Positions 7,824 to 38,008 are shown, counted from the first letter of the stretch. The stretch: DNA of 64,000 bases from Bacteroidales bacterium (GCA_024409235.1 JAKSUA010000003.1:9309-73308); one strand, 5' to 3'. Translations and numbers: made by a program. Notes: a model not told the origin generated them from the sequence alone.

Positions 7824-8243
7824 CTAGACAAATCTTTGTTCGAATTCGCGAACTTCTTTTCTTTCTGCTTCTACAGCCATACGCAAATCATCCCACACTT
7901 GTTTTCCATTATGAATTGCATCTACAAACAGCTCTCCGCGTGTTTTGTCTGTTGAGTATATTGTTAGATTTGATAAACCTACAAGACGTAATAGAAAAGG
8001 CTCGAACAATTTAGTGTCGGTAACACGTTTTAAAAGAATTTCATCTGTGCGTTTAGAAAATAAACCTCGTTCAACAATAATGCGTTTTGTAGTAATGGTT
8101 GTCTTTGTGCATTTTAATAAAAAATAATGGTAAAGTGCTACAAAGACAGGTATTATTAACCAACAAAACAAGCCACATAAAACAAAAACTTTTGTATTTG
8201 TCCATTGTGACGGTGTTCCTTCATAGATTTTCTTTTCTTCCAT
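7824..8243 (-). CDS. Membrane protein with bacterial PH (bPH_2/YdbS-like) domain
   Basis: Two N-terminal TM helices followed by TTITTKRIIVERGLFSKRTDEILLKRVTDTKL...LSNLTIYSTD, typical of bPH_2. Confidence 0.7.
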   Translation of the reverse strand: MEEKKIYEGTPSQWTNTKVFVLCGLFCWLIIPVFVALYHYFLLKCTKTTITTKRIIVERGLFSKRTDEILLKRVTDTKLFEPFLLRLVGLSNLTIYSTDKTRGELFVDAIHNGKQVWDDLRMAVEAERKEVREFEQRFV

Positions 8244-8248
8244 ATTAT

Positions 8249-9730
8249 TTACTTTTCTAATTTCATCATTCTCAATTCATTTCCTACTGACATTAAAATG
8301 AATACAACAAGTAGCATAGTTTTAAATACGTAGGATACAATCAGATTATCGAAAATAATGTACTTGTTAACTACGAAAATAATTCCGGTTAGTATAAAAT
8401 AAAAAGCTAAAGCGCCAAGTTTATAAGGAATTCCATAGTGTTTCTGACAAAGATTATATGATAAAACCGCCATCAAAACATAGCAGGCGAGTGTTGCCCA
8501 TGCACAGGCAACGTAACCATACATAGGAACAAATATCATATTAATTCCTAAAGTAATAAGTGCTCCAAATCCAGTGATTCCAATACCAAATTTTGTTTGA
8601 TTTGTAACTTTATACCAAATGGAAAGGTTAAATACAATTCCTAAGAAGATGTTAGCCATAAGTAGAATAGGGATGATATTTAAACCGTCATGGAAGTTGG
8701 TTCCGATAAATAATTTAAATACATCAATATAGAGAATTATTCCAAGGAATATAAACAAAGTGAATATTGTGAAGTAGTTCATAATTTTAGCGTATGTCTG
8801 CCGTGAATCATTTTCTTTCATTCTTGAGAAGAAAAATGGTTCAGCTGCGAAGCGAAATGCCTGGTTAAATAGTGAGATTATCATAGCCAATTTATAGTTA
8901 GCTCCATATATACCGACTTGAGAAAGTATATATTGCGAGGCATCAGCACCGTCAGGTATTGTTAAGAAATAACGGAGAGAAACTCTGTCGTAAACTTCGT
9001 TAATACTTCCAGCAAGACCAGAAATAAGCAGCGGCCATGAATAACTCAAAATTCGTTTTAATAAACTGTAGTCGAATCCATTGCGAGATTTAAAAATATC
9101 TGGTAACAGGAGAAGTAATGTAACAATGCTTGCAATTAGATTCGAAATAAAAATCCAAAGAACATTTGGTGTAGCGAAATGTTCTGTTAACCAGGCATTT
9201 GAACTAGTTTTTGCAATTTGTGGAAGTACAATTATCAATAATAGATTAAGCCCAATATTTATGGCAATATTTGTAAGCTTAATTCCAGCAAATTTCACTG
9301 CTTTGTTTTCGTGACGTAGTTTTGCAAATGGAACGCTTGTAAAGGCATCAATACCTATAATAACTGCCATAATCATTATAAAATCCTGATGATTAGCGTA
9401 TCCTAAAATATTTGAGATAGGACCGAGGAAAATAAGAACTAGTCCAATGAAAATGAATGACGAAGAAAATAAACTTGTCATTATTGTTGAAAAAACCTTT
9501 GGCTGATCTTCTTTATTTTGTACAAAGCGGAAAAATCCAGTTTCCATACCATATGTAAGGAAAATCATTAAGAAAACAGTATAGCTGTAAAGTTCTGTAA
9601 CAACTCCGTATTCCGATTGTGAAAAGCAGCGCGTGTAGAGCGGAACAAGCATAAAATTAAGGAAACGACCTATAATTGTACTCATTCCGTAAATTGCTGT
9701 TTGTCCGATAAGTTTTTTGATTACTCCCAT
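8249..9730 (-). CDS. Oligosaccharide/polysaccharide flippase (MOP superfamily, Wzx-like)
   Basis: About 490 aa and polytopic (12-14 TM), with a MOP-type N-terminus (IGQTAIYGMSTIIGRFLNFMLVPLYTR). I prefer the ATG at 9730 (MGVIKK...), which sits 1 nt after the hemW stop. The track ORF extends to 9754. Confidence 0.8.
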   Translation of the reverse strand: MGVIKKLIGQTAIYGMSTIIGRFLNFMLVPLYTRCFSQSEYGVVTELYSYTVFLMIFLTYGMETGFFRFVQNKEDQPKVFSTIMTSLFSSSFIFIGLVLIFLGPISNILGYANHQDFIMIMAVIIGIDAFTSVPFAKLRHENKAVKFAGIKLTNIAINIGLNLLLIIVLPQIAKTSSNAWLTEHFATPNVLWIFISNLIASIVTLLLLLPDIFKSRNGFDYSLLKRILSYSWPLLISGLAGSINEVYDRVSLRYFLTIPDGADASQYILSQVGIYGANYKLAMIISLFNQAFRFAAEPFFFSRMKENDSRQTYAKIMNYFTIFTLFIFLGIILYIDVFKLFIGTNFHDGLNIIPILLMANIFLGIVFNLSIWYKVTNQTKFGIGITGFGALITLGINMIFVPMYGYVACAWATLACYVLMAVLSYNLCQKHYGIPYKLGALAFYFILTGIIFVVNKYIIFDNLIVSYVFKTMLLVVFILMSVGNELRMMKLEK

Positions 9731-24962: not shown

Positions 24963-25154
24963 TTAAGCTTCTACAGCTTTTTCTACAAGTAATTTTCCGT
25001 TGTAGTATAAGTTACCTTCTACTTCGTATGCTGTATGTCTGCGGTGAACTGTTCCTGTTGTAGGACATTTGCTCAATGTTGGAGCTACAGCGTTGTCGTG
25101 TGTACGTCTTTTGTCTCTTCTTGTCTTAGAGACTTTTCGTTTAGGATGTGCCAT
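24963..25154 (-). CDS. rpmF: 50S ribosomal protein L32
   Basis: MAHPKRKVSKTRRDKRRTH..., 63 aa. Confidence 0.95.
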   Translation of the reverse strand: MAHPKRKVSKTRRDKRRTHDNAVAPTLSKCPTTGTVHRRHTAYEVEGNLYYNGKLLVEKAVEA

Positions 25155-25166
25155 CTTATTATTATT

Positions 25167-25688
25167 TTATTTTTTAAACATATCTTTTAATGAATCCCAT
25201 CGAGGATCCGTTTTTTCTTCGTTTTTCTTTTTTTTCTGTTTCAAATATGAAACAACGTTTGAATTGCAGTCTTTCTCATTTTTATGAACTTTCTTCAATG
25301 GGATTGAAAGCATAATCATTTCGTAAATGATTGGAGACAGTCCGATTTCAGTTTCGTCTGGTGCAATAACAATAACGTTTTCAGCATCGGCTAATTCGTC
25401 ATCTTTTTCCCCCACTTTTACTACCATGTCTTGGTCCATTTGAATCGGCAGTTGGAAAATGTCTAAACATCTGTCGCATGCAACCGAAATGGTTCCTTTC
25501 ATTTTCAAGGAGAGTGTATGCAAATCCTTTTGTTTAACGAAATGGACATTGACATTTAAGTCAGCGTCATATACTCCATCCATTTGTTGTTTCTCAATGA
25601 ACTCTTTTGTAATTCTCAGTATTTCATCGTATTTCCCCTCTTTCAAGGTTTGTAGTGGAATCGTATATAAATCCTTCAATCGACTCAT
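25167..25688 (-). CDS. YceD/DUF177 family protein
   Basis: It is immediately upstream of rpmF, the conserved pairing, and has CDRCLD plus an acidic C-terminal half. Confidence 0.85.
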   Translation of the reverse strand: MSRLKDLYTIPLQTLKEGKYDEILRITKEFIEKQQMDGVYDADLNVNVHFVKQKDLHTLSLKMKGTISVACDRCLDIFQLPIQMDQDMVVKVGEKDDELADAENVIVIAPDETEIGLSPIIYEMIMLSIPLKKVHKNEKDCNSNVVSYLKQKKKKNEEKTDPRWDSLKDMFKK

Positions 25689-25796
25689 ACAAGAAAATTA
25701 GCACGCAAAAATAGAAAAAACTTTACAAATCACAAACATTTCACAATTTATTAACAATGAATATTTTTTTGTTGGTGATTTCGGGTTATTTAAACA

Positions 25797-26669
25797 CTAT
25801 TTCTTTAGGTTTGTGAATCTCGCGATAACGCCTAGAGGTAGTTTCTTTTTAAAATCATCTTCTAGGTATAATTCTCCAAATTCTTTCTCAGCGGTGTGAT
25901 TTTTAAAGATTTCGTTTACGAGATTTTCAAGAATAAAGGCTGAAAAGCCTAATGAATATGTATTTAGAATAAAGAAGAAACGATTTTTGTCAAGGATTTT
26001 CTCTACATCTTTGAGTAGGGCGTTAAGATCTCGTTCAAGTTTCCAGTCTTCTCCGTTTGTTCCTCGTCCAAAGGCAGGCGGATCCATTATAATACCATTA
26101 TATAGATTACCTCTTTTAATTTCTTTGGCAACGAATTTTCTCGCATCCTCAACAATCCAGCGTATGTTTTCCTGTCCGGAGCTTTCCATGTTCTGTTTAG
26201 TCCAGGAAACAACTTGCTTTACGGAATCAAGGTGTGTAACATCTGCGCCAGCGGAACGGGCTGCAATTGATGCAATTCCTGTATAACCAAATAAGTTCAA
26301 TACTTTTAGCCCTTGATTTGCTTTGCATACAGAGTGTATGTAGTCCCAATTTACTGCTTGTTCTGGAAATATTCCGACGTGTTTGAATGCCGTGAATTTG
26401 AGATTGCAAGTAAGATTCAAATGGTCATATTTTATCTGCCACGAATCAGGTATATTTTTGTGTTTAATCCAGTCTCCGCTGTTGCTGGAACGTGCTACAA
26501 AGTCAATGGTTGAATATTTCTGCCATTCTGCTTCAGAAAGGGATTTGTCCCATACTGCCTGAGGTTCAGGACGACGGGTAATGACAGAACCAAACTTTTC
26601 AAGTTTCTCGAAATTTCCTGAATCTATCAGACGATAGTCATTCCAGTGAGTTGGAGTAAGATAAATCAT
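25797..26669 (-). CDS. Class I SAM-dependent methyltransferase (COG1092, RlmI/RlmK-like)
   Basis: VLNLFGYTGIASIAA (motif I), VTHLDS and IIMDPPAFGRG (motif IV). I place the start at the internal ATG 26669 (MIYLTPTHWNDYRL...). The upstream 153 codons of the track ORF are Rhs-derived. Confidence 0.85.
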   Translation of the reverse strand: MIYLTPTHWNDYRLIDSGNFEKLEKFGSVITRRPEPQAVWDKSLSEAEWQKYSTIDFVARSSNSGDWIKHKNIPDSWQIKYDHLNLTCNLKFTAFKHVGIFPEQAVNWDYIHSVCKANQGLKVLNLFGYTGIASIAARSAGADVTHLDSVKQVVSWTKQNMESSGQENIRWIVEDARKFVAKEIKRGNLYNGIIMDPPAFGRGTNGEDWKLERDLNALLKDVEKILDKNRFFFILNTYSLGFSAFILENLVNEIFKNHTAEKEFGELYLEDDFKKKLPLGVIARFTNLKK

Positions 26670-26719
26670 AGTTTGTAAATTACTTGGCAAAGATAACATA
26701 AATGCACAATAACAATGTT

Positions 26720-27128
26720 TAATTTCTAATTCATAATCACCTTGGATAACAGTATGAACTTTGTTAAAAGGAGTGTAGGTAACATATTGTGAAATTGTGG
26801 AAACAATGCTGTCGGTATTATCAACCATAGTTACCGCATGAGGTCGGCTTGATTCGTAGTAATATGAGCCAACGCCTGTCTTACTTGCAATGTTGCCATT
26901 TGTTGTATATTCGACCAGGCTGGTCTGTCTATTATGCGGGGTGTATGTTCTTACTAATCGTCCTAAAGAATCGTAGCTGAAATTTTCAGTATTTCTGCCT
27001 GTAAGCATACTATTGCGGCTCATCAACAGATTCCTCTGTTTATCAAAATTATAGCTTATGATATTTAACGTATTTGACTTATGACTAAGATTTACATAAT
27101 GCAGATATATAGAATTCGAGAAAATCAT
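26720..27128 (-). pseudogene. Internal Rhs/YD core remnant, truncated at both ends and in frame with the methyltransferase gene
   Basis: YNFDKQRNLL, FSYDSLGRLVRTYTP, and GVGSYYYESSRPHAVTMVDNTDSIVSTISQYVTYTPFNKVHTVIQGDYELEI. The last segment aligns to residues 11-64 of the 32713-31130 fragment (GIGSYSYDSDRPHAVDWVDNTGGLVSEVPQYVTYTPFNKVATVNQGTYNLTI). Homology stops about 50 nt before the methyltransferase ATG. Confidence 0.75.
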
Positions 27129-27203
27129 ACCCTAACAATCTTTATTTGCTGTCTAAATTTACTGGAGTATTATAAAGCACGCACAAATTGAACGATTAGT
27201 TAT

Positions 27204-27716
27204 TCACTTTAATCTCTCCACTACTTTATCTGGTGGTAAAATAAATTTACACCAATACACAATCGCCGCGTCATAACCTCCAGATTCTTTTTTTTGTTTT
27301 TCATTGAAAATATACAATGTTCCCACATCAAAAGGAAAATTTTCATCAGCGAGGCTTTTTTTGTACATATTGAAATATTCAGCTTTTCCCTTTATACCGT
27401 TGTTAAGAAACCCTATTTTTTTATTTGTAAAATCAAATCCACATAACGAGTCTTTGAATACTATATTCAGAAGATCATTCTCGTATTGATTCAGTATCAA
27501 AGAATCATTGGTACCCATAGCATCCAAATGGTTCAATATTTCCCCTGATATTGCATTTATTTTTTTTATATGTGATACAATATAGTAACTACTATCAGGA
27601 CAACTATGGTGCTGAATTTGTTGATTTTTTATCGTATCTTTTGTCATAGCAGATATGTTTTGCTTAAATGTATTGTTTGCACATAGAAACAATATGAGTA
27701 ATATAGAACAGTTCAT
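27204..27716 (-). CDS. Exported 170-aa protein, orphan immunity candidate sharing a C-terminal module with the 331- and 337-aa proteins
   Basis: N-terminal signal-like segment. LNQYENDLLNIVFKDSLCGFDFTNKKIGF...YDAAIVYW matches LNDYEAEYLNHTFKSCRGDFDFKGKRVQF...YDAIIEL (30125-31120) and LNSYEAAYLNLILKDIRGDFDFEGKKIHF...YDAIIDL (35533-36546). Confidence 0.55.
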   Translation of the reverse strand: MNCSILLILFLCANNTFKQNISAMTKDTIKNQQIQHHSCPDSSYYIVSHIKKINAISGEILNHLDAMGTNDSLILNQYENDLLNIVFKDSLCGFDFTNKKIGFLNNGIKGKAEYFNMYKKSLADENFPFDVGTLYIFNEKQKKESGGYDAAIVYWCKFILPPDKVVERLK

Positions 27717-27776
27717 TGCCTTAGTTGTTTAATTGATAGATATAAGGACTTGAATATATGCCAATTTGTCTAATTG

Positions 27777-27836
27777 TAAACTTCCTTTCTCCAAAACTGC
27801 CTAAAGTTAGGCAAATGTAACAAGTTTAGTTTAATT
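27777..27836 (-). repeat. Inter-cassette junction motif, copy A (contains a TAnnTTTG box)
   Basis: taaacttcctttctccaaaactgcctaaagttaggcaaatgtaacaagtttagtttaatt is nearly identical to 34624-34683. On the minus strand it contains TACATTTG. Confidence 0.75.
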
Positions 27837-27867
27837 ACAGAGTTACGATTTTTTGGGGAGTAGTGGG

Positions 27868-28956
27868 TTATTGTTCATCTTGATTGCATTCCACAATTTC
27901 TAACAATCCATATTTAGTTTTGACATTAAACGCTTCTTGTGCTTCCTTGATTGTATATACCTTAAACACACAAATTGAGTCATTGTTGAGAGCAGACAAA
28001 ACTTTATTTCGATGAAATCTTTTAAGATAATTACCATTTATAAGAAAAAGAAGTTTACTTTTTATAAAAAATTTATTTTCATCTTCTCGTTTTATCTTAT
28101 ACGCAGCTATTGGATTTGTTATATTTAATATTTCTGTACATTCCTTTTCTGATAAAACAAATCCATCCAATATCACCACGGTCGAGCTATCCTTTTTATA
28201 TTGATTTAGCATAGCAGATATATCACTTTTGTAATCAGGATTACCAAAAATCACCTCTTCTTTGCCGCAATTTGAATATCCATTTATTAAAAGTTGAAAA
28301 CAATCTTCTCCTTTTTCCAGTAAATATTGTTCAAATTCAGTTTGACCATTTGTATAAATAAATTCTCCATTATTTTCCGTAACATGAATAAGTTCTTTAT
28401 TATCGAAAAACCAAAATCCTTGTATATCGTAAATGAAAAATATTGAGTGTGTTTCCGTTGACTGCAATAATTTTTCATAACTAGATATGCCAAACAAATT
28501 TAATTTTTCGGTCATAAACACATCTTGCTTACACATTTTGCTTGGTAAATCCTGATTAACAAACCAAAGTTCCTTATTGTATCGTTCACGGTACGATTCT
28601 ATTCCTTTAACAAGATAACCACAATATCTATGATTTCCTTTCTTTAGAATAAATGCTTGATTTTCCGGATTTGGAATAAAATCAATGTAATGGAACAGAG
28701 AATCGTTTTTTATATTTTCTTTCAAAGAATATATCGGAATGTTTTTTTCAACATATAACGACTCATAAAATATAAGAGTATCTATTTTTTGTGATTTCTT
28801 TCCACATTTATTACAACCATATTTATAGGTCTTTTCTTGATAATCAACAAAACATTTAATTGCTTGTCTTTCGAACGCAACCGTATCAAATTGCGCAAAT
28901 AGAAATTGACATTGAAATAGAATAATCGTTATGATAATTATTTTCTTCATAAGCAT
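27868..28956 (-). CDS. Exported protein, predicted immunity partner of toxin tip 3
   Basis: It starts 5-11 nt after the tip-3 stop (ATG at 28956 or 28950) and has the signal peptide MKKIIIITIILFQCQFLFAQ. I recognise no domain. Confidence 0.55.
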   Translation of the reverse strand: MLMKKIIIITIILFQCQFLFAQFDTVAFERQAIKCFVDYQEKTYKYGCNKCGKKSQKIDTLIFYESLYVEKNIPIYSLKENIKNDSLFHYIDFIPNPENQAFILKKGNHRYCGYLVKGIESYRERYNKELWFVNQDLPSKMCKQDVFMTEKLNLFGISSYEKLLQSTETHSIFFIYDIQGFWFFDNKELIHVTENNGEFIYTNGQTEFEQYLLEKGEDCFQLLINGYSNCGKEEVIFGNPDYKSDISAMLNQYKKDSSTVVILDGFVLSEKECTEILNITNPIAAYKIKREDENKFFIKSKLLFLINGNYLKRFHRNKVLSALNNDSICVFKVYTIKEAQEAFNVKTKYGLLEIVECNQDEQ

Positions 28957-28960
28957 CTGT

Positions 28961-30042
28961 CTAATAATGTGTAATTTGCCAGGCATTTATAAGATTGTCA
29001 AAATTATATAATTTTTTGTAACCACTCACCTCTGGATTCATTACTCGGATAACCCACTTGTTTGGATAAACCTTAATACTTTTAACTCCAACCGCATGAC
29101 CATTTGTCCCATCCACCAGAGTTTCCAAAGAGATTCCTTTTCCTTGTTTCATTATCGCAACCAAGTCTTGTATATCATCGGCACTGATTTTTTTCAAATT
29201 GAATCTTCTTGCGGCATACATATCTCTCATCATATTCTGGTCAACTTCAACATGAGGATATGTCATTCTTAAAGAACCTGTACTTTTTGTTGATCCATTA
29301 AAACACTTATCAAAACTTTTAAAAACTTCATATCTACAGTCATACGGACCATATTGATTAAACTGAGGTATTTTCATTTTTGATTTACAAATTGTTCCAT
29401 CCCAAAAATTTCTTTTATCCCTAATAGCATCTATACCACCAATAATCCCCCCTATCAACGCTCCCGAAGTTCCAGAAACAAAACCATCCTTTAATCCTGC
29501 AACTAGGGAATTCCCGAATCCTTTACTTTCAACAAAACCATTCCCTAAGCCAGTGCCCCAATAACTAAGTTCCAAAATTCTCCACTTGGGTCATTGTATT
29601 TCAGCGGATTATTCAGACAGTAACTATATCGGTTGTAGTTCTGCAAATCCTCGGGAGCCTGAACAAACGGGTCGGGGCTAAGGAAGCGTGCAATCACGGG
29701 GTCGTACATTCGGCCGTTCATGTCAATCAAACCAAACTCCTGCCAATGTTCGTGGCCGCAATAGCCTCGCTGGAAACGAGCTAAACTGTCGGTAACCACA
29801 TTTTGCTTGCCCCACGCATCGTATTCGGCACGGAATACCTTTTGCCCGTTTCTGTTGTATAAAGATGCAATGCTACCCAAATAATCGGTCTCTGCCGAAT
29901 AAACCGTAATTGTAGAATTTTTCTTCTCCGCCACGTTCGTTAGCCCGTCTGGAGTATGTATGTAGTAGTAACGATACACGTCGTCACCTGAATGCACCTC
30001 CTCGTAGGTGTCGGCATAGTATCGGGTGTTGTAACCTAACAT
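28961..30042 (-). pseudogene. Orphan Rhs C-terminal fragment plus toxin tip 3 (papain-like Cys peptidase fold predicted), split by a frameshift just after DPSGE
   Basis: ORF 30042-29545 gives MLGYNTRYYAD...NNPLKYNDPSGEFWNLVIGALA-stop. ORF 29575-28961, in another frame and TTG-initiated, continues with a Gly-rich linker and Q74-x5-C80 ... H160 ... N180. One extra T in the TTTT run (plus-strand AAAA 29574-29577) would fuse the two frames. Confidence 0.7.
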
Positions 30043-30060
30043 TTAATTTTATATAAACTT
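29582..30060 (-). repeat. Rhs core-end repeat, copy A (near-identical to 34152-34630)
   Basis: By eye, a long central stretch of several hundred bp is identical between the copies (atatcggttgtagttctgcaaatcctcgggagcc ... ggagtatgtatgtagta). Scattered mismatches occur at both ends. Both copies end in gtaacctaacatttaatttt. Confidence 0.85.
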
Positions 30061-30124
30061 CCTCTCTCCAACAGTCTATAGATAGCCTTCTAGAATAGAA
30101 AGTGTACACTCCTTTGTGCGATAT

Positions 30125-31120
30125 TCACTTTCTCCTTTTGGTCGATTTCTTATCGTATAGTTTCCAAGCACGTAATTCTATTATAGCATCATAATTCTTT
30201 TCTTGTTTTATTTCAAGAAAAATAAACTCCATCGTGTTCGTGTTACAAGTTGCAGGTCTTGCATTTTCATGATAACGATTCCGTTCGCCTTTAAAAAAAG
30301 GCATTTTTTGATTTAAAGATGATTTAAGACCAAATTGAACTCGTTTTCCTTTAAAGTCGAAATCACCCCGACACGATTTAAATGTATGATTCAAATATTC
30401 AGCTTCATAATCATTGAGAATCAGTTTGTTGTCAACACCCATTTTGTCAAAATTAGTAAGTAGTTCCATGGGTATATCTTCAAATGTTACCTTTGAAGTG
30501 TCTTTTAGTATAGTGTCTTTAATTACAGAATGATGCTTCATTCTTTGGACATCCCTGTGGTTATGCACGACTTGAATATCATCCTTCGTAACACAATAAA
30601 AAACATCACCATACATACCATAATAACGGAAGATATGGATTGGTTGTAATTGAATGATATAATTGAGAACATTGTTGTAAATCAACGGCATTTTGTCCCA
30701 TTTTTGTCCACCGTATTTTGTAACTAAAACAGTAGGTTCTTTTTTTGAACAATCATAAATCGAAACATTATATATATTTTTAGAGTCCATAACGACTATC
30801 CTGTCGTAAAAATCATCTTTTGATTTAAAAAACAATTGTTCCACATCTTGAGACATTTCGTTATCGATATAGATTTCAGACCAATATAAACAACATAACG
30901 TTTCGAAAGGGTTATTTAACTGACATTTCTTTACTGCTGCTCGAATGTTCTTTTTATTTTTTTTCTTGTTTTCAAAACTTGAATAATCTTCAAGCATGAC
31001 TATTGATGCAGCATTTTTGTTGGTGCCACAATAGGTAATGGGATGTTCTACCTTTACTTGCTGAGCAAATATAAATTCAGTAAAAAGCAAAAATGTACTA
31101 AAAGTTATGAACTTAAGCAT
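30125..31120 (-). CDS. Exported 331-aa protein, predicted immunity partner of toxin tip 2 and paralog of 35533-36546
   Basis: Signal peptide MLKFITFSTFLLFTEFIFAQ. It starts 9 nt after the tip-2 stop. It shares DVEQLFFKSKDDFYDRI, FDKMGVDN and GDFDFKGK blocks with the 35533-36546 protein. Confidence 0.6.
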   Translation of the reverse strand: MLKFITFSTFLLFTEFIFAQQVKVEHPITYCGTNKNAASIVMLEDYSSFENKKKNKKNIRAAVKKCQLNNPFETLCCLYWSEIYIDNEMSQDVEQLFFKSKDDFYDRIVVMDSKNIYNVSIYDCSKKEPTVLVTKYGGQKWDKMPLIYNNVLNYIIQLQPIHIFRYYGMYGDVFYCVTKDDIQVVHNHRDVQRMKHHSVIKDTILKDTSKVTFEDIPMELLTNFDKMGVDNKLILNDYEAEYLNHTFKSCRGDFDFKGKRVQFGLKSSLNQKMPFFKGERNRYHENARPATCNTNTMEFIFLEIKQEKNYDAIIELRAWKLYDKKSTKRRK

Positions 31121-31129
31121 GACAAATTT

Positions 31130-32713
31130 CTATTTCAAATGAGTTAATAAATATTGACCTTGTATTCTTTTTGAGGAAATTCTATAAAAGTTACCATCTA
31201 CTGGATCCATAATGGTATAATAGTATCTCGGATGTAGTTGTCTCCCTGTACAACTTATTATATTCCGTTGTATAACATTTTTTAACGCTAAACCATGACC
31301 ATAAGATTTGCCAAATTCATCGTAAACAATCGTTGTCAAGAGTACCTTTTTATCCGTATTCTTTAATGCATTCGCTAAATATTCTGATTTAACTTTTATT
31401 TTATTTAAACTCCAAGTTGAGTTTGACACGGCATCAAGCGTTTCTGCTAAATCATCCATAGGAACCAATCCATGTGGACCACAACTATAGTAATTAGAGA
31501 GAGATTCCTGGCTAATGCCTGTCGTTGATTCAACTGCAGCGAATCCGCAATCGTATGGTCCTTTTTGAATAATGCTGGTTACGTCTGTTTCGACTAATGT
31601 TTTTTCATAGATAGTTCTTCCTGTCCAAATTGAGCAATCAGCCTTTTTTGCATTTTTTAATCCTGCAACACATCCTCCTAATGCTCCTGTAATAGCACCT
31701 TCAGCCAATCCGTACCAAAGTGCATCCGTCAATCCCGTATTCCAATTAGTTCCAGAAATGCAATTATTTAGAATTGTAGTTGAAGCACTTGTTGCCACAC
31801 CTGAAGCAGCACCGAGTGCGGCACCTGTGGCACATCCGGAAATGATTCCCGCCACGTTGGTTGCTCCGCCACAAAGACCAGAAACAGCACCAACAGCTGC
31901 TCCTGCAAGGAAATATGCACCTCCACCCGAGTCAGATGTTTTTGAAGCAACACAAACATTTGTAATACCTCCCACGATTGCACCTATAACAATTGCTTCC
32001 CATGCAAGCTCTCCACTTGGGTCGGTATATTTCAGTGGATTATTCAGACAATACGAATAGCGGTTGTAGTTCTGTAAATCCTCTGGAGCCTGAACAAACG
32101 GGTCGGGCGAGAGGAATCGCGAGATTACGGGGTCGTACATTCGGCCGTTCATATCAATGAGGTCGAATTCATGCCAATGCTCGTGGCCACAGTAGCCCCG
32201 TTGGAAGTGGGCGAGGTTGTTGGTAACCACATTCTGCCTTCCCCACGCATCGTATTCCGCACGGAATTCGGTTTGCCCTTTATAGTTATACATCGCCACT
32301 ATACTTCCCAAGTAATCGGTTTCAACGGAATACAATTTCAGGTTCATAGTGTTGCCTATCCTCTCAGCAACCATCGAAAGCCCATCGGAAGTGTAAACAT
32401 AATAGTAACGGTAAACGGTGTCGCCTGCGTGTACTTCCTCGTAGTTGTCGGCGTAGTAGCGGGTGTAGAGCAGGGTGTCGTTTCGGCTCAGTGCCGTTTT
32501 GCACCGTTGGCGGTCGGGGCCGTATGTTATGGTAAGGTTGTAGGTACCTTGGTTCACAGTCGCCACCTTGTTGAACGGCGTGTAGGTAACGTATTGCGGA
32601 ACTTCCGAAACCAAGCCTCCAGTGTTATCCACCCAATCAACGGCATGGGGGCGGTCGGAGTCGTATGAATACGAACCTATGCCTGTTTTCTCCGTTCCGT
32701 TAGTTGCATTCAT
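31130..32713 (-). CDS. Orphan Rhs C-terminal fragment (230 core residues) plus toxin tip 2 (papain-like Cys peptidase fold predicted)
   Basis: Core ...YDAWGRQN...GRMYDPVISRFLSPDPF...NNPLKYTDPSGE (DPSGE at 32023-32009). A Gly/Ala/Ser-rich hydrophobic linker follows, then IIQKGPYDCGF (Q383, C389), GHGLAL (H473) and MDPVDG (D503). There is no N-terminal delivery domain. The ATG overlaps the upstream stop (ATGA). Confidence 0.75.
   Translation of the reverse strand: MNATNGTEKTGIGSYSYDSDRPHAVDWVDNTGGLVSEVPQYVTYTPFNKVATVNQGTYNLTITYGPDRQRCKTALSRNDTLLYTRYYADNYEEVHAGDTVYRYYYVYTSDGLSMVAERIGNTMNLKLYSVETDYLGSIVAMYNYKGQTEFRAEYDAWGRQNVVTNNLAHFQRGYCGHEHWHEFDLIDMNGRMYDPVISRFLSPDPFVQAPEDLQNYNRYSYCLNNPLKYTDPSGELAWEAIVIGAIVGGITNVCVASKTSDSGGGAYFLAGAAVGAVSGLCGGATNVAGIISGCATGAALGAASGVATSASTTILNNCISGTNWNTGLTDALWYGLAEGAITGALGGCVAGLKNAKKADCSIWTGRTIYEKTLVETDVTSIIQKGPYDCGFAAVESTTGISQESLSNYYSCGPHGLVPMDDLAETLDAVSNSTWSLNKIKVKSEYLANALKNTDKKVLLTTIVYDEFGKSYGHGLALKNVIQRNIISCTGRQLHPRYYYTIMDPVDGNFYRISSKRIQGQYLLTHLK
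32009..32473 (-). repeat. Rhs core-end repeat, divergent third copy
   Basis: It covers the same coding segment as 29582-30060 and 34152-34630 but has many substitutions, for example tctgtaaatcctctggagcc versus tctgcaaatcctcgggagcc. Confidence 0.7.
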
Positions 32714-33207
32714 AGAAAACTAAAAAGAATTACAAACAAACAAATAATTAAAATTATACTCAAAGAAAAATTTTTTACAATTGATTTCCTTAAATATTTG
32801 TTTTCTTTTTTTATAATAACCTTTCCTTTCTCCTTGTATATCCAAACATCTCCATTAATGACTGGTAAAAGATATTGTTTTACAAAATTAGATTGTGATT
32901 TTAAACTATATGTTTTGTCTTTTGACATGCATGCACCGAAATAGTCATAAAAATCACTAATATCGAAAGAATATTGTTTTTGACAAATATAGAAATAATC
33001 CGTACGAATTATTTCTATAGACCAAGTTTGTTCATCTCCGATAATATGGAATTCTCTTGCATTTTGATAATTTTCATATATAACTGAGGGCAGACTTCGA
33101 CCATTGTTAATAGAACATTTTTTTATCGAAAAACCAAATTCATTCAAGAAATCAAAAATTTTTAAGATTTCAACAAACAGTTTTTCGTTATAGGTTAAAT
33201 CATCCAT
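32710..33207 (-). CDS. 165-aa tail-anchored protein, predicted immunity partner of toxin tip 1
   Basis: It starts 1 nt after the tip-1 stop. It has no N-terminal signal and a single C-terminal TM helix (NFSLSIILIICLFVILFSFL). Confidence 0.55.
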   Translation of the reverse strand: MDDLTYNEKLFVEILKIFDFLNEFGFSIKKCSINNGRSLPSVIYENYQNAREFHIIGDEQTWSIEIIRTDYFYICQKQYSFDISDFYDYFGACMSKDKTYSLKSQSNFVKQYLLPVINGDVWIYKEKGKVIIKKENKYLRKSIVKNFSLSIILIICLFVILFSFL

Positions 33208-33208
33208 T

Positions 33209-34612
33209 TTAATTTTTATTTATGATAAGAATTCTAATTGTCTGCGTTTTATTGTAAATAGCTTTGACGTTATAAACATTGTTGTAGTTCATGGTACGCC
33301 CTTGTTCCATATTATAGTATGGACTACCATTACCAACAGGACCTCTATCATATATTATTATATTTTCTTGCATTTGAATTTCAATTTGTACAGCGTTATC
33401 ATACATTAATTCAGGGGACGTTCCATAACCTTTGACTTCTTTAGGTATACTATTGTCTGGACGATAATAATCGCTACCCAAATCTTTTGAGATTTGATCA
33501 ACTCCCATCCATCCTTTTTGAGGATCCGTAGTCATTCCTTCTCCTATGGTAAAACTTTTTTTCGGTTTCCCATTCCAAGGATTAATACTATTTTTTCTTG
33601 CACTTACAATTGCTCCAGCACTACCAGATATTGTTCCTGTTATTGCACCTGAAGCTATACTTTGTAATCCTATATGATTTGCTGTAGCAAAATCTCCCGT
33701 CATTATCAAACCTGCCGTTGTCCCTCCAACATAGCCACCAACTGCACCTCCAATGAAGCCTGCAACCGCTCCTTTCAATGTTGGACTCGTTATTTGAAAT
33801 CCATTTATGACAACTCCTCCCAAACCATTTCCTGCCCATTGTCCAGCAGTACCACCAACGAAACCAGATACAGCCCCAATACCTGCATTTCTCAATAAGT
33901 CACTTGCCGAACTTGCTCCACCAAGCCAAGCGTTTGTGGCTCCCATAATTGCTCCTCCTATCAATGAACCTCCAAATTGTGGATACATTGATGCGACGCT
34001 ACTAGCGGCTCCTGCAGCAAATGCTGCAGCTCCTCGTCCAATAGAATTCCAAATATTAGACCCTCCCAAATTTCCTTGAAGTGCGTTTGAAACCAAATTG
34101 ATCGTGCCACCTATCGCACCAACAATCAAATCATCAAATAACCAGTATTCCCCACTTGGGTCGGTATATTTCAGCGGATTATTCAGACAGTAGGAATATC
34201 GGTTGTAGTTCTGCAAATCCTCGGGAGCCTGAACAAACGGGTCGGGGCTAAGGAAGCGTGCAATCACGGGGTCGTACATTCGGCCGTTCATGTCAATCAA
34301 ACCAAACTCCTGCCAATGTTCGTGGCCGCAATAGCCTCGCTGGAAACGAGCTAAACTGTCGGTAACCACATTTTGCTTGCCCCACGCATCGTATTCGGCA
34401 CGGAATACCTTTTGCCCGTTTCTGTTGTATAAAGATGCAATGCTACCCAAATAATCGGTCTCTGCCGAATAAACCGTAATTGTAGAATTTTTCTTCTCCG
34501 CCACGTTCGTTAGCCCGTCTGGAGTATGTATGTAGTAATAGTAATATACGTTATTCCCAGAATGTACTTCTTCGTAGTTGTCGGCATAGTATCGGGTGTT
34601 GTAACCTAACAT
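33209..34612 (-). CDS. Orphan Rhs C-terminal fragment (150 core residues) plus toxin tip 1 (about 200-aa glycine-zipper-like region and an unknown C-terminal domain)
   Basis: MLGYNTRYYADNYEE...NNPLKYTDPSGE (DPSGE at 34162-34148). A region rich in G/A/S with GxxxG-type spacing follows, then about 130 aa with no motif I recognise. Confidence 0.75.
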   Translation of the reverse strand: MLGYNTRYYADNYEEVHSGNNVYYYYYIHTPDGLTNVAEKKNSTITVYSAETDYLGSIASLYNRNGQKVFRAEYDAWGKQNVVTDSLARFQRGYCGHEHWQEFGLIDMNGRMYDPVIARFLSPDPFVQAPEDLQNYNRYSYCLNNPLKYTDPSGEYWLFDDLIVGAIGGTINLVSNALQGNLGGSNIWNSIGRGAAAFAAGAASSVASMYPQFGGSLIGGAIMGATNAWLGGASSASDLLRNAGIGAVSGFVGGTAGQWAGNGLGGVVINGFQITSPTLKGAVAGFIGGAVGGYVGGTTAGLIMTGDFATANHIGLQSIASGAITGTISGSAGAIVSARKNSINPWNGKPKKSFTIGEGMTTDPQKGWMGVDQISKDLGSDYYRPDNSIPKEVKGYGTSPELMYDNAVQIEIQMQENIIIYDRGPVGNGSPYYNMEQGRTMNYNNVYNVKAIYNKTQTIRILIINKN

Positions 34613-34630
34613 TTAATTTTATTATAAACT
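34152..34630 (-). repeat. Rhs core-end repeat, copy B (near-identical to 29582-30060)
   Basis: See copy A. Direct comparison by eye shows the two are in direct orientation, 4.57 kb apart. Confidence 0.85.
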
Positions 34631-34683
34631 TACTTTCTCCAAAACTGCCAAATCTCTACAAATGTAACAAGTTTAGTTTAATT
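34624..34683 (-). repeat. Inter-cassette junction motif, copy B (contains a TAnnTTTG box)
   Basis: taaacttactttctccaaaactgccaaatctctacaaatgtaacaagtttagtttaatt. On the minus strand, TACATTTG lies about 55 nt upstream of the orphan fragment ATG. Confidence 0.75.
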
Positions 34684-34732
34684 GCTAACTTTCAATTTTT
34701 AGGAATGTTATAGCGGTTATTGTTCTGATTAT

Positions 34733-35449
34733 TTAATTGTTTGAATTTATTACATTTTCAAGTGGTGTAAATATATACTCGTTCAACTCTTTTATTTGGG
34801 AATAATAATAATCGTACACATACAATTTATTCTCTTTCAAGAAAAGAAAGCAGTCTCCCTTTAGGAAAAGAAAGGAATCTTCGGTATCCTCATAATGTAA
34901 ATACATAATATATTCCGGATCTTGTTTTTTAATTTCTTTTATGATTTTCTTATCTTCACGAAGTGCCTTTGAACACCTACCACCACACACCCATCGATAC
35001 CAATAATCACAACATATTACACCATTTGCTTTGTTATTTACCTCCACGCCACTACTATTCCTGTTTTTTGTATTACGAAACAATAAACTCCAATTCCCCC
35101 ATAGGTTAAAACAATTTGTGACAACAATTGCGGAATCTATTATCTTTATATTTAACAGATACAATGGTCTTAAACGTTTTAAATCCTTGGAAAATCTTTC
35201 CGTCATTCTGTTAATATCATTTATATCAAGCGTAAAAAAACGTTCGGAACGTGAGTCTTTAACATGATATCCATTCTTAAGCGTCTCTCTATAGGTATCA
35301 ACCAAAAAATTGTTATATTCCACCTTATCCAAACGTTTGTAACAATCTCTTATCTGCGAGATTGTTTCTGAATAAACAAAATCCTGTGCACATAAATTCA
35401 TAGCACACAAGAAAAGTATATTTATAATTAAGAACACTCTATTCTTCAT
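34733..35449 (-). CDS. Exported 238-aa Cys-rich protein, orphan immunity candidate
   Basis: Signal peptide MKNRVFLIINILFLCAMNLCAQ. It sits in the array with no cognate toxin upstream, and I recognise no domain. Confidence 0.5.
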   Translation of the reverse strand: MKNRVFLIINILFLCAMNLCAQDFVYSETISQIRDCYKRLDKVEYNNFLVDTYRETLKNGYHVKDSRSERFFTLDINDINRMTERFSKDLKRLRPLYLLNIKIIDSAIVVTNCFNLWGNWSLLFRNTKNRNSSGVEVNNKANGVICCDYWYRWVCGGRCSKALREDKKIIKEIKKQDPEYIMYLHYEDTEDSFLFLKGDCFLFLKENKLYVYDYYYSQIKELNEYIFTPLENVINSNN

Positions 35450-35532
35450 AATTTCACACCATTAATTTTATAAAAAGTCCAATTTTTCATTTCTGAAACA
35501 CTACACTTTCCCTCTCCATATTTAACTACTCC

Positions 35533-36546
35533 TTATTTCTTGTATGAATTTGTATCATATAACTTCCAAATTAACCATTCCAAGTCAATGATTGCATCAT
35601 ATTCCTTGTATGGTCCGTCATTATAGAATTTTAGATATACGCTTCCTTGTTGACTCGAACTAGGTGGAGCCCCTTCTGCATATCTATTTTTCTCTCCTTC
35701 AAAAAATAGTTTTTTACCTCCATTTAGGAAGAAATGAATTTTTTTACCTTCAAAATCAAAATCACCCCGTATATCCTTTAAAATCAGATTCAAATACGCA
35801 GCTTCGTAACTATTTAACAGTGGATAATTATCAACACCCATTTTATCAAAGTTTTCCAATAGTTCTTTGGGTATATTGTCGAATGTTAATGACAAAATAT
35901 CCTTTTTAAGAGTGTCTTTTATTACAGACCAATGTTTTACACTATCAATGTTACAATCATACTTAACAATTTGGACATCATTACCTACAACACAATAAAA
36001 ACAATCTCCTTTTTTATCTAAATAGCGAAAAACAGCATCAGGCTTTAATTGCAATATGTGAGACAGCATTTTATTTCCAAACACCATTACATCACACCAG
36101 TGATGGGCGTATTGTTCAGATAATATATTAATTACTCCGCTGTTGTAATCAAATATGTCATAGTGATATATAGAAAAAAAATCTTTTTCCCTACTATCGG
36201 CACTGATTATAATTCTGTCATAAAAATCCTCTTTTGATTTAAAAAATAAATCTTCAACATCTCGACAACATTCATCATCTATATTAGAAATTTCTGACCA
36301 AAAAAGACACGACAAATCTTTCTTATCCCCTGCAATATTACACGTCCTTGTAGAGATTCGAATTGCACGTCGTTTTTGTTTTTGTAAATTATAACCAGAA
36401 TAATCATCCAATATAGTTACTCTTGACGGCCCTATGTACGAGCCAGTAGCAGTCATTATAGAAGGGACATTAAGTTTTACACGTTGTGCAAACAAAAAGT
36501 GTCCCGATAATAATAGAATAATAACTAAATAAAATCGTTTCGACAT
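35533..36546 (-). CDS. Exported 337-aa protein, paralog of the tip-2 immunity candidate and first gene of the array
   Basis: I prefer the ATG at 36546 (MSKRFYLVIILLLSGHFLFAQ); the track start at 36585 is a TTG. Similarity to 30125-31120 runs the full length. Confidence 0.6.
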   Translation of the reverse strand: MSKRFYLVIILLLSGHFLFAQRVKLNVPSIMTATGSYIGPSRVTILDDYSGYNLQKQKRRAIRISTRTCNIAGDKKDLSCLFWSEISNIDDECCRDVEDLFFKSKEDFYDRIIISADSREKDFFSIYHYDIFDYNSGVINILSEQYAHHWCDVMVFGNKMLSHILQLKPDAVFRYLDKKGDCFYCVVGNDVQIVKYDCNIDSVKHWSVIKDTLKKDILSLTFDNIPKELLENFDKMGVDNYPLLNSYEAAYLNLILKDIRGDFDFEGKKIHFFLNGGKKLFFEGEKNRYAEGAPPSSSQQGSVYLKFYNDGPYKEYDAIIDLEWLIWKLYDTNSYKK

Positions 36547-37045
36547 ATTTTTTAAAAAAATGTAATAGAGAAAACGCATGCTCAATAGATTTTTACAAAT
36601 TTAACAGTTTTGTCCAGCTTTTGGGGTTCACATCATTTTTAGGGAAGTGTACATGGGTAGAAGTAGCTTTAAATACATAAGTGAGATTTGTATTTACAAT
36701 AAATATTGATAGCTTTAACCCGTTGTGCGTGGATATAATAAAAACCAAAATAATTAATATTGTGAATTACTTTTACTTCAAAGTACGAGAAAATTCTTGA
36801 AATAATCAAGCAGAAAAAGAAAATCTTCTAAATCAAAAAAGGAAGCCATAGATGAGAGACTCTTTTTTGTTTAGTAAATAGTTGGTTATTCTTTGTTTTT
36901 TGACTGTTAACAGAATATTGGTAAAAAGTTGGTGTTTTTATTAGTAAAAAGATTGTATATAGTTGATATACAATAAAATAATTTTAATTTTAAATTAATT
37001 CATAATTAATTTGTATATTTGCCCACATTTAAAATTTGTAAGGTT

Positions 37046-37411
37046 ATGGCAAAAATCGAAAATGGTGCTTTTTCAACAAACTTGATTACTTCGGGAACAG
37101 TTATTACAGGTGATATTACATGTGATAGCGATATGAGAATCGATGGCGTTTTAGCAGGAAATTTGACGGCAAAGGGAAAGATTGTTATTGGGAAAACAGG
37201 CAATGTAAAAGGTGAAATTAACTGCCAAAACTGTGATATAGAAGGTAAAGTGGAAGGAAAACTTTCCATCAAAGATTTATTGTCATTGCGAGCTACTGCA
37301 AAATTTATTGGTGATATAGTTGCAACGAAATTGGCTATTGAACCAGGAGCAATTTTTACAGGTACTTGTAAAATGAACGGCGAAAAAGACGCGTCTGTTG
37401 AAAAAAAATAA
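37046..37411 (+). CDS. Bactofilin (polymer-forming cytoskeletal protein)
   Basis: Repetitive beta-helix pattern ITGDITCDSDMRIDGVLAGNLTAKGKIVIGKTGNVKGEINCQNCDIEGKVEGKL. ATG at 37046; the track uses an upstream TTG. Confidence 0.85.
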   Translation: MAKIENGAFSTNLITSGTVITGDITCDSDMRIDGVLAGNLTAKGKIVIGKTGNVKGEINCQNCDIEGKVEGKLSIKDLLSLRATAKFIGDIVATKLAIEPGAIFTGTCKMNGEKDASVEKK

Positions 37412-37607
37412 CATCAACGGTTTTATAAAGTATTCAAACATCGCCATTCAAATGCTTGCAGTAATACTTTTAGGAGTATTCGGCGGGTTGAAGTTGGATG
37501 AATTTTTTGAAAACGAGGCTCCGGTTTGTCTCATTGTTTTATCGTTGTTTTCGGTATTTGCCGCCATTTATTTGGCAATTAAAGATTTCATAAATATGGA
37601 CAAATGA
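37398..37607 (+). CDS. AtpZ/AtpI family small membrane protein
   Basis: 69 aa with two TM helices and KYSNIAIQMLAVILLGVFGGLKLD, typical of Bacteroidota AtpZ. The start is a TTG overlapping the bactofilin end. Confidence 0.7.
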   Translation: MKKNNINGFIKYSNIAIQMLAVILLGVFGGLKLDEFFENEAPVCLIVLSLFSVFAAIYLAIKDFINMDK

Positions 37608-37999
37608 AACTCTTTATTTCCCGACTTAGCATACACATCTGTGCATTTTTGATAATAACCATTGTATTTATGTTGCTGACAAAGAATCTGTTCGGAGCAA
37701 GTGACAGATTTTGGTCAGTTTTTTCGGGTTTAATATATTTCATAATTCCAATTTGCGCGGTAATTAATATTTGTGGAGAAATTGCGTTTGTAGTATTCGT
37801 AAATAAGAACAATAAAGAAAGTACATTCAAAGTCTTAACAATTCGTTCTGTAAAATTTCTATGCTACCTTATCCTCGTGCTTGTTTCTATGCTAGTTTTT
37901 AAGGATTTTGAAGAGAAGTCTTTTATTGGAGTCAGTATTGTCATACTGTATTTTATTTATGCCATTATTGAATTCTTTTATTTTAGAAATAAAAATTAA
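37604..37999 (+). CDS. 4-TM membrane protein of unknown function (position of the DUF6168-like gene that usually follows AtpZ)
   Basis: ATGA start/stop overlap with the AtpZ gene and four hydrophobic helices. Confidence 0.55.
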   Translation: MKLFISRLSIHICAFLIITIVFMLLTKNLFGASDRFWSVFSGLIYFIIPICAVINICGEIAFVVFVNKNNKESTFKVLTIRSVKFLCYLILVLVSMLVFKDFEEKSFIGVSIVILYFIYAIIEFFYFRNKN

Positions 38000-38008
38000 C
38001 AAAACGAT

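Follow-up and report, generated by a model that had tools for sequence, protein, structure and literature searches.

A 64-kb stretch of a metagenome-derived contig from a Bacteroidales bacterium (GCA_024409235.1 JAKSUA010000003.1:9309-73308), called the window here, carries on its minus strand an array of truncated Rhs toxin genes and small immunity-like genes; all coordinates are window positions. Judged from its sequence, the array is a decayed, unlinked set of orphan Rhs cassettes, and it reflects ordinary turnover of polymorphic-toxin loci rather than a new type of island. It is likely that the array represents a decayed second copy of the canonical Rhs locus of this clade, from which the delivery genes were deleted between the bactofilin and methyltransferase genes. 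Comparison with relatives showed the insertion, a footprint of the deleted genes, cassettes standing behind full-length Rhs genes, tip switching and recurrent loss of the parent. An earlier note on this DNA had proposed a stand-alone reservoir or a new flavour of acquired-immunity island, and that idea gives way before the footprint and before the same cassettes, which stand behind Rhs proteins of 2019 and 2027 amino acids (aa) in relatives.

As had been described, ten same-direction minus-strand units occupy positions 26715-36717 between a methyltransferase gene and a bactofilin gene in the open reading frame (ORF) listing. They comprise three Rhs core-end fragments (one broken), six small exported or membrane-anchored proteins and one core remnant. 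Behind the footprint at the locus head, the units in transcription order are as follows.

36658-36717, minus strand: locus-head footprint, made up of 39 nucleotides (nt) of leader sequence and the opening 7 codons (MYLKLLL) of a Por_Secre_tail gene; upstream island edge.
A, 35533-36546, minus strand: exported 337-aa DUF8192 protein with a signal-peptide-like N-terminus; immunity-like, no toxin adjoining.
B, 34733-35449, minus strand: exported 238-aa protein of no known family; orphan immunity candidate.
C, 33209-34612, minus strand: orphan Rhs fragment; core end 34148-34612, tip 1 33209-34147.
D, 32710-33207, minus strand: 165-aa protein, membrane-anchored at its C-terminus and lacking a signal peptide; candidate immunity gene for tip 1.
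E, 31130-32713, minus strand: orphan Rhs fragment; core 32009-32713, tip 2 31130-32008.
F, 30125-31120, minus strand: exported 331-aa DUF8192 protein; candidate immunity gene for tip 2.
G, 28961-30042, minus strand: pseudogenised orphan Rhs fragment in two frames; core 29578-30042, followed by a tip 3 remnant.
H, 27868-28986, minus strand: exported 372-aa protein; immunity candidate for tip 3.
I, 27204-27716, minus strand: exported 170-aa DUF8192-domain protein; orphan immunity candidate.
J, 26715-27107, minus strand: remnant from inside an Rhs core, representing the 5' portion of another orphan fragment that is cut at the downstream island edge.

The Rhs identity of the fragments was borne out by TIGR03696 (Rhs_assc_core; cut-off 32.5 bits), which C, E and the first frame of G (29545-30042) match above the cut-off at 8e-20, 6e-19 and 3e-20, respectively; with Pfam and NCBIfam profiles, SpvB, FG-GAP and RHS_repeat found no match in the fragments. 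All three begin within the core, as claimed, aligning to parent residues ~1484 or ~1566 onward, of 2019. They end the core in NRYSYCLNNPLKY(T/N)DPSGE, with DPSGE at aa 151-155 in C and G and 231-235 in E. In their core DNA, C and G are 97% identical, while E is 78% identical to both; the C and G proteins share 92% identity as far as the core end, past which they diverge. The frameshift reported for the third fragment is a 250-nt out-of-frame deletion near 29554, in the glycine-rich region of G, relative to the parent tip of the metagenome-assembled genome (MAG) UBA1715. J was also rightly called an internal core remnant, being 95% identical to residues 1416-1546 of the same UBA1715 parent.

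In this clade the canonical order is a Por_Secre_tail gene, an SpvB/FG-GAP/YD-shell Rhs gene (~2000 aa) and then the cassettes. We retrieved close relatives by a genome scan with the core of E; among the loci compared, L003 is MAG UBA1715, L006 is MAG SGB_4336, L094 comes from a different sample, L007 is an unrelated MAG, and L095 and L096 are two homologs of E picked at random from long contigs. The pair of Por_Secre_tail and SpvB/FG-GAP/Rhs genes is found in L001/L002, L003, L004, L005, L090, L094, L095 and, twice, in L096. The parents P0121-P0125 and those of L090, L094, L095 and L096 combine an N-terminal SpvB domain with an FG-GAP/integrin-like propeller, TcdB_toxin_midN and RHS repeats, and the L004 and L005 parents (2034 and 2012 aa) have a related core. 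Against this background, the first 60 nt of the array are telling: the footprint is identical at 55 of 60 positions to L090 9515-9574 and L094 482-541, where the sorting-domain gene starts at 9554 and 521, respectively. This gene, which encodes a C-terminal sorting domain of the type IX secretion system (T9SS), matches Por_Secre_tail at 5.9e-15. On its array side the footprint switches directly into an inter-cassette element, and the downstream array edge is an arbitrarily cut core (J). The footprint at the array head thus points to a canonical locus that lost its delivery genes, and this deletion would explain the apparent start of the array with immunity genes. The reported absence of a parent, recombinase and secretion gene holds across the 64 kb, save for this sorting-domain remnant.

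A gene of 145-161 aa lies directly before every full-length Rhs gene that we examined (L001 5426-5911, L003 20-457, L004 5077-5529, L005 5073-5525, L090 9554-9991, L094 521-958, L095 2500-2976, L096 1442-1906 and 19650-20132); seven of them match Por_Secre_tail, and those of L004 and L005 were identified only from size, position and N-terminal similarity. The constant pairing suggests that the small protein is a dedicated export or adaptor partner of Rhs. In L001 (9850-10060) and at the equivalent position in L002, the full-length Rhs gene is split into 1330 and 655 aa by a frame change at an A-run, and the YD-repeat runs on in the other frame; the split occurs in two independent assemblies and may reflect a pseudogene, slippage or an error in sequencing.

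The site of the array was compared in relatives retrieved by a metagenome scan with the methyltransferase protein. In L013 the distance from bactofilin to methyltransferase is 790 nt, with a small gene between them (PAP2-like by eye), and in L015/L016 it is ~95 nt. Because the gene pair is contiguous in relatives and the homology of the window to them ends at 26670 and 37010, the array is an insertion of ~10 kb. The interval comparison proposed in the earlier note thus places an insertion at the bactofilin/methyltransferase pair. On the methyltransferase side the native sequence outside the island is as follows.

25797-26697, minus strand: native flank, a 290-aa class I S-adenosylmethionine methyltransferase (25797-26669) plus its -7 box TATCTTTG (26688-26695).

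This -7 box is conserved, and the L013 homology resumes at 26670. The longest ORF at 25797-27128 (443 aa) is a chance in-frame fusion of J with the methyltransferase, whose true start is the ATG at 26669. On the other side, the sequence from 36937-37009 onward to 38214 was confirmed at 99.9% in an independent run, Logan SRR17543910 (L097). Exact-protein look-ups with E, YceD, rpmF, H, B and bactofilin returned, besides single-gene catalogue entries, two short Logan contigs, both ending before the island junctions. The array has a GC content of 0.350, compared with 0.341-0.350 in the flanks, and its tetranucleotide usage is also flank-like; a megablast search of the island against plasmid and phage collections found no match. 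The two outer junctions (26727-26737 and 36996-37006) each carry the 11-nt direct repeat TAATTCATAAT. As a target-site duplication it was rejected, given a chance expectation of 2-4% and its misfit with a simple crossover model.

The relatives carry the same cassettes in several stages of rearrangement. In L003 the order is the 145-aa Por_Secre_tail gene, a 2019-aa Rhs gene, a 309-aa gene, a 689-aa tip-1 orphan, D, an E-like gene and A; the tip-1 orphan is 100% identical to C over 462 aa, D is 100% identical and A 97%. L094 corresponds to L003 minus the segment from the parent core to the orphan core, so that tip 1 sits on a 2027-aa Rhs protein followed by D and E; its tip is 98.8% identical in nucleotides to that of window C. 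From this comparison, L094 is a natural case of orphan activation, or tip switch, via core-to-core recombination, an event that has been selected experimentally in Salmonella (PMC3967940). Over ~450 nt, the cores of C and G match the parent core at 93-94% identity and include exact stretches of 105-134 nt; the core of E reaches only ~73%. L006 reads C-D-E-F-G'-(139 aa)-A and is 98.9% identical in nucleotides to the window over 4.8 kb. The sorting-domain gene and the full-length Rhs gene are missing there at the PGK locus (8017-8147), the array begins 70 nt past the PGK terminator, and its C is cut 10 aa deeper than that of the window. By its sequence, L006 is a second, independent parent-less array, located at the original site. 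Since C, G and G' have one truncation junction and the same upstream sequence, they descend from a single truncated fragment that was duplicated and had its tips replaced.

A candidate parent may persist in the same genome. P0121, the N-terminal 880 aa of a parent, is 100% identical to that of L003 and lies at the end of contig 23 of MAG GCA_024402315.1 (JAKSTY01), where the order is Pkinase, PGK, sorting-domain gene and P0121; the contig end inside Rhs suggests an assembly break at repeated Rhs sequence. Contig 1 of this MAG starts in an E-like tip and continues with F', G', a 139-aa gene, A' and the flank seen in L003 and L006. Its copies are 95-97% identical to those of the window, so they and the window array are distinct loci. 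The gene catalogue GCA_024500545.1 holds the same truncated products together with window E, yceD, rpmF and bactofilin, and the composition of the window and GCA_024402315.1 is compatible with one genome. We consider it quite probable that the two share a genome.

The array also contains an inter-cassette element, which was found upstream of four units.

36590-36657, minus strand: partial element before A, with boxC at 36611-36640 and a -7-like TAAATTTG at 36596-36603.
34613-34732, minus strand: element before C, with boxA TAAACTAAACTTGTTACATTTG, containing TACATTTG, plus boxB.
30043-30124, minus strand: partial element before G, with boxB; the same sequence stands before G' in L006 and L091.
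27717-27867, minus strand: full element before I, with boxA and boxB exact; 93.6% identical to L007 1667-1744.

The 22-nt boxA occurs exactly before C, before I and in L007. BoxB precedes C, G and I and recurs in L006, L091 and L007, and boxC lies upstream of A and in L007 (1587-1616), with 2 mismatches between the two. The Bacteroidetes -7 consensus is TAnnTTTG; TACATTTG in boxA fits it and lies, at 34659-34666 and 27812-27819, 47 and 96 nt ahead of start codons. The full Bacteroidetes -33/-7 promoter pattern gave no match. We infer that the element, through its TAnnTTTG box, may drive cassette transcription. The L007 element is located at an array end, with no gene downstream.

Tip 1 consists of a glycine-rich hydrophobic region and a 130-aa toxin domain that falls outside all Pfam families. 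Its last 130 residues belong to a small family of 33 representative clusters, and the domain terminates full-length SpvB/FG-GAP/TcdB/RHS proteins elsewhere; on these matches, tip 1 reads as a bona fide toxin module of full-length Rhs proteins. Tip 2 combines a glycine-rich region with a putative papain-like cysteine peptidase-fold domain. When tips 2 and 3 are aligned with six further Rhs tips, Q, C, H and M-(D/N)-P are invariant. AlphaFold modelled tip 2 at a pLDDT of just 50, and the top Foldseek matches of this model are CdiA-CT 8ssm and staphopains, with falcipains also found. The invariant Q/C/H motif, with the Foldseek matches of the low-confidence model as supportive evidence only, indicates that tips 2 and 3 are probably papain-fold peptidases of one superfamily. 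The earlier description of a common core end with unrelated tips is thus right for the core end and for tip 1, which is unrelated to the other two, and needs correction for tips 2 and 3, which are distant relatives. The profile and structure runs suggested for the tips and small proteins yielded these papain-like hints and no direct family match: the tips and the six small proteins hit no family above noise in Pfam or NCBIfam, and a sequence search of the PDB with tips 1 and 2 found nothing significant.

The small proteins are indeed exported or anchored, as had been stated, and some of them are related. A, F and I form a set of paralogs, with A and F 42% identical and I corresponding to the C-terminal domain of both. 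Their family, DUF8192 (PF26612), was assigned via precomputed matches on counterparts that are 95-99% identical (97% for the A ortholog in L091). I is also 42% identical to a 294-aa gene after the L004 parent. Outside the window contig, the exact sequence of B occurs in only one single-gene entry of the gene catalogue. In L003 and L006, as in the window, the gene after tip 1 is D (100% identical), and in L094 a 165-aa gene follows tip 1 inside a stretch that is 98.8% identical in DNA. C and D are thereby adjacent in four loci, and E and F in three, the latter adjacency being kept in L006 (99.7%) and L091. D, F and H are candidates for the cognate immunity genes of tips 1, 2 and 3, respectively. 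The signal peptides of F and H suggest a periplasmic target, so the periplasm is the probable site of action of tips 2 and 3; as D has no signal peptide, that of tip 1 is probably the cytoplasm.

An E-like gene in L003 (10001-11596) and the 655-aa product of L001 10001-11968 have the E core and glycine-rich region and a different toxin end domain (…PYDGMC…NHYFG…), which points to module swapping within the tip. A was considered as the immunity gene for this L003 tip and rejected, because the homologous L001 tip precedes an unrelated 210-aa protein instead. In L010 (10884-11654), a lone 256-aa exported homolog of H (44% identical) lies between the orthologous methyltransferase and yceD. It is missing from the near-identical contig L025 (10870-11007), an indel of a single immunity-type gene beside the same housekeeping gene.

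In the rest of the window, Pfam scans, which took in ORFs of at least 150 aa, found housekeeping genes only (ATP synthase, rpmF/yceD, RuvB, NadA, YceG, PanB, a two-component system); no Rhs shell, full-length Rhs, type VI secretion system (T6SS) or T9SS machinery, integrase or transposase was detected among these ORFs. The sole tRNA of the window is 11 kb off the array, in line with the claim of no bordering tRNA, and Rfam gave no match over 25000-38000.

According to the above comparisons, the history of the array is likely to be as follows. A copy of the canonical locus would have landed between the ancestrally adjacent bactofilin and methyltransferase genes, and a deletion that began at codon 8 of the sorting-domain gene and reached an inter-cassette element would then have taken out the delivery genes. 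The leftovers would be the three orphan core-end/tip fragments, D, F and H, the unpaired A, B and I, and the cut fourth fragment J. The kept immunity genes could guard the cell against sister strains deploying the same tips, and the fragments could be re-attached via their conserved core end to a full-length Rhs gene elsewhere in the genome. The most likely role of the array, as far as its gene content tells, would be to bank immunity genes and to keep toxin tips in reserve.

Several observations weigh against this account. A stands first here and last in L003, L006 and L091, and a one-step deletion fails to give this order. The contig crosses an exact 342-nt repeat common to the G core (29626-29967) and the C core (34196-34537), so the internal cassette order may reflect assembly. 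The 292 nt from the footprint to the bactofilin promoter region (36718-37009) found no match among the fetched sequences. TAnnTTTG occurs 11 times in the region against ~7 expected, which is no clear enrichment. The assignment of JAKSTY01 contigs 23 and 1 to the same genome as the window contig is not proven; each record returned from the catalogues GCA_024500545.1 and GCA_024500515.1 is one gene long, with numbering up to ~16.9 million, which makes gene co-occurrence there weak evidence of a shared genome.

It is unlikely that the array is instead a new type of stand-alone island, for acquired immunity or as a reservoir of tips, never accompanied by a parent and built cassette by cassette by some capture mechanism that uses the repeated inter-cassette element. 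Such an island would fit the absence of a parent, recombinase and secretion gene from the 64 kb, the exact 22-nt boxA that occurs twice in the array and once in the unrelated L007, the immunity-type genes at the opening and a cassette order unlike that of every relative. However, the sorting-domain footprint is the mark of a former complete locus, and the downstream end is a randomly cut core rather than a defined site. In addition, the common C/G/G' junction speaks for duplication with core recombination and against site-specific capture, and the orphans of all sampled relatives stand behind a full-length gene.

It also seems improbable that the orphan fragments work within the producing cell in the manner of toxin-antitoxin modules, transcribed from the inter-cassette promoters and translated from a conserved ATG (MLGYN...). 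The start codon and upstream boxB are kept in C, G and G' in three genomes, the probably cytoplasmic tip 1 is paired with a D that has no signal peptide, and a report on Salmonella (PMC7043789) offers a precedent in its proposal for orphan Rhs. On the other hand, with F and H exported, tips 2 and 3 are probably periplasmic and beyond the reach of an unsecreted fragment; G is a pseudogene, and the L007 element has no downstream gene.

We regard as very doubtful the idea that the inter-cassette element (~120-170 nt; boxC, boxA with TACATTTG, and boxB) is a dedicated, integron-like cassette-boundary module served by any recombinase encoded elsewhere; if true, it would allow autonomous cassette expression and shuffling between unlinked loci.

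Finally, an assembly artefact, either a MAG chimera joining an Rhs array from the PGK locus or a co-resident strain, or an array shuffled across core repeats, is highly improbable: the contig is metagenome-derived and contains the exact C/G repeat, the contigs of a related MAG end inside Rhs genes, and the C-to-G segment is nearer to L006 (98.9% nucleotide identity) than to L091 (95.2%), but both flanks rejoin the same synteny, which would need two coincident mis-joins, the 3-5% divergence from the PGK-locus copy speaks against a collapsed duplicate, and B, H, I, tip 3 and the footprint junction occur in none of the related loci fetched. The C-D-E-F-G order is found independently in L006 and L091, confining the doubt to the order across the 342-nt repeat; the join of the G core to tip 3-H-I-J is without such backing. 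The repeat could mislead short-read assembly; it also plainly offers a substrate through which the segment from the C tip to F could be deleted or duplicated.

The decayed array has most of the features of an orphan Rhs array; within the window, it does not trail a full-length rhs gene. Like the classical orphan rhs-CT/rhsI arrays (Poole 2011, PMC3150448; Koskiniemi 2014, PMC3967940), its fragments start inside the core and end it in DPxGx, a distinct tip is followed by a putative immunity gene, the units are co-directional, and re-attachment by core recombination is indicated by L003 versus L094. Unlike those arrays, which trail a full-length gene, it has none in cis, the probable parent being at another locus (PGK), and the parent class here is an SpvB/FG-GAP/YD-shell protein with a T9SS-sorting-domain partner, in contrast to the PAAR/VgrG-linked T6SS Rhs proteins of classical arrays. 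The SpvB, beta-propeller and RHS architecture with exchangeable C-terminal cassettes and toxin-immunity pairing also resembles that of the TcdB/TcaC-type toxins (Zhang 2012, PMC3482391). The same work defines polyimmunity loci as never interrupted by toxin cassettes, and the three toxin cassettes and the core remnant among the immunity genes place the array outside that definition.

With the recombinase-associated islands rAID-1 (Ross 2019, bioRxiv 10.1101/471110), the array has in common a Bacteroidales host, co-directional genes, orphan immunity genes, repetitive intergenic sequence and plausible protection from the toxins of neighbours. Its GC of 0.35 is below 41% yet equal to the genome background, with no skew. 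It differs in the interspersed toxin fragments and in having no XerD-like recombinase in the window ORFs searched, which puts it outside the rAID-1 definition; the earlier note had set it apart from such islands as well. Earlier work has already described both orphan-only Rhs sets and SpvB-Rhs genes next to T9SS-type genes. In Gilliamella apicola, orphan-only Rhs toxin domains with linked immunity genes were proposed to have a defensive role, and in Apibacter (Bacteroidota), Rhs proteins with SpvB/TcdB N-termini adjoin type A sorting-domain genes (Steele & Moran 2021, PMC8125069). Compared with these bee-gut sets, the present case lies in a different lineage (gut/rumen-type Bacteroidales MAGs), the loss of the parent is visible as a footprint, and a likely parent probably persists elsewhere in the genome.

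Current models are not overturned by the array or its relatives, whose setting is uncultured gut/rumen-type Bacteroidales. The association of SpvB/FG-GAP/Rhs proteins with a small T9SS-sorting-domain gene is extended beyond Apibacter. Taken together, the loci form a clear natural turnover series, from the complete locus (L003) through a tip switch (L094) and parent loss at the original site (L006) to second-site decay in the window. The array adds a data point for immunity and tip cassettes that outlive their delivery gene, which fits a defensive role as an immunity bank.

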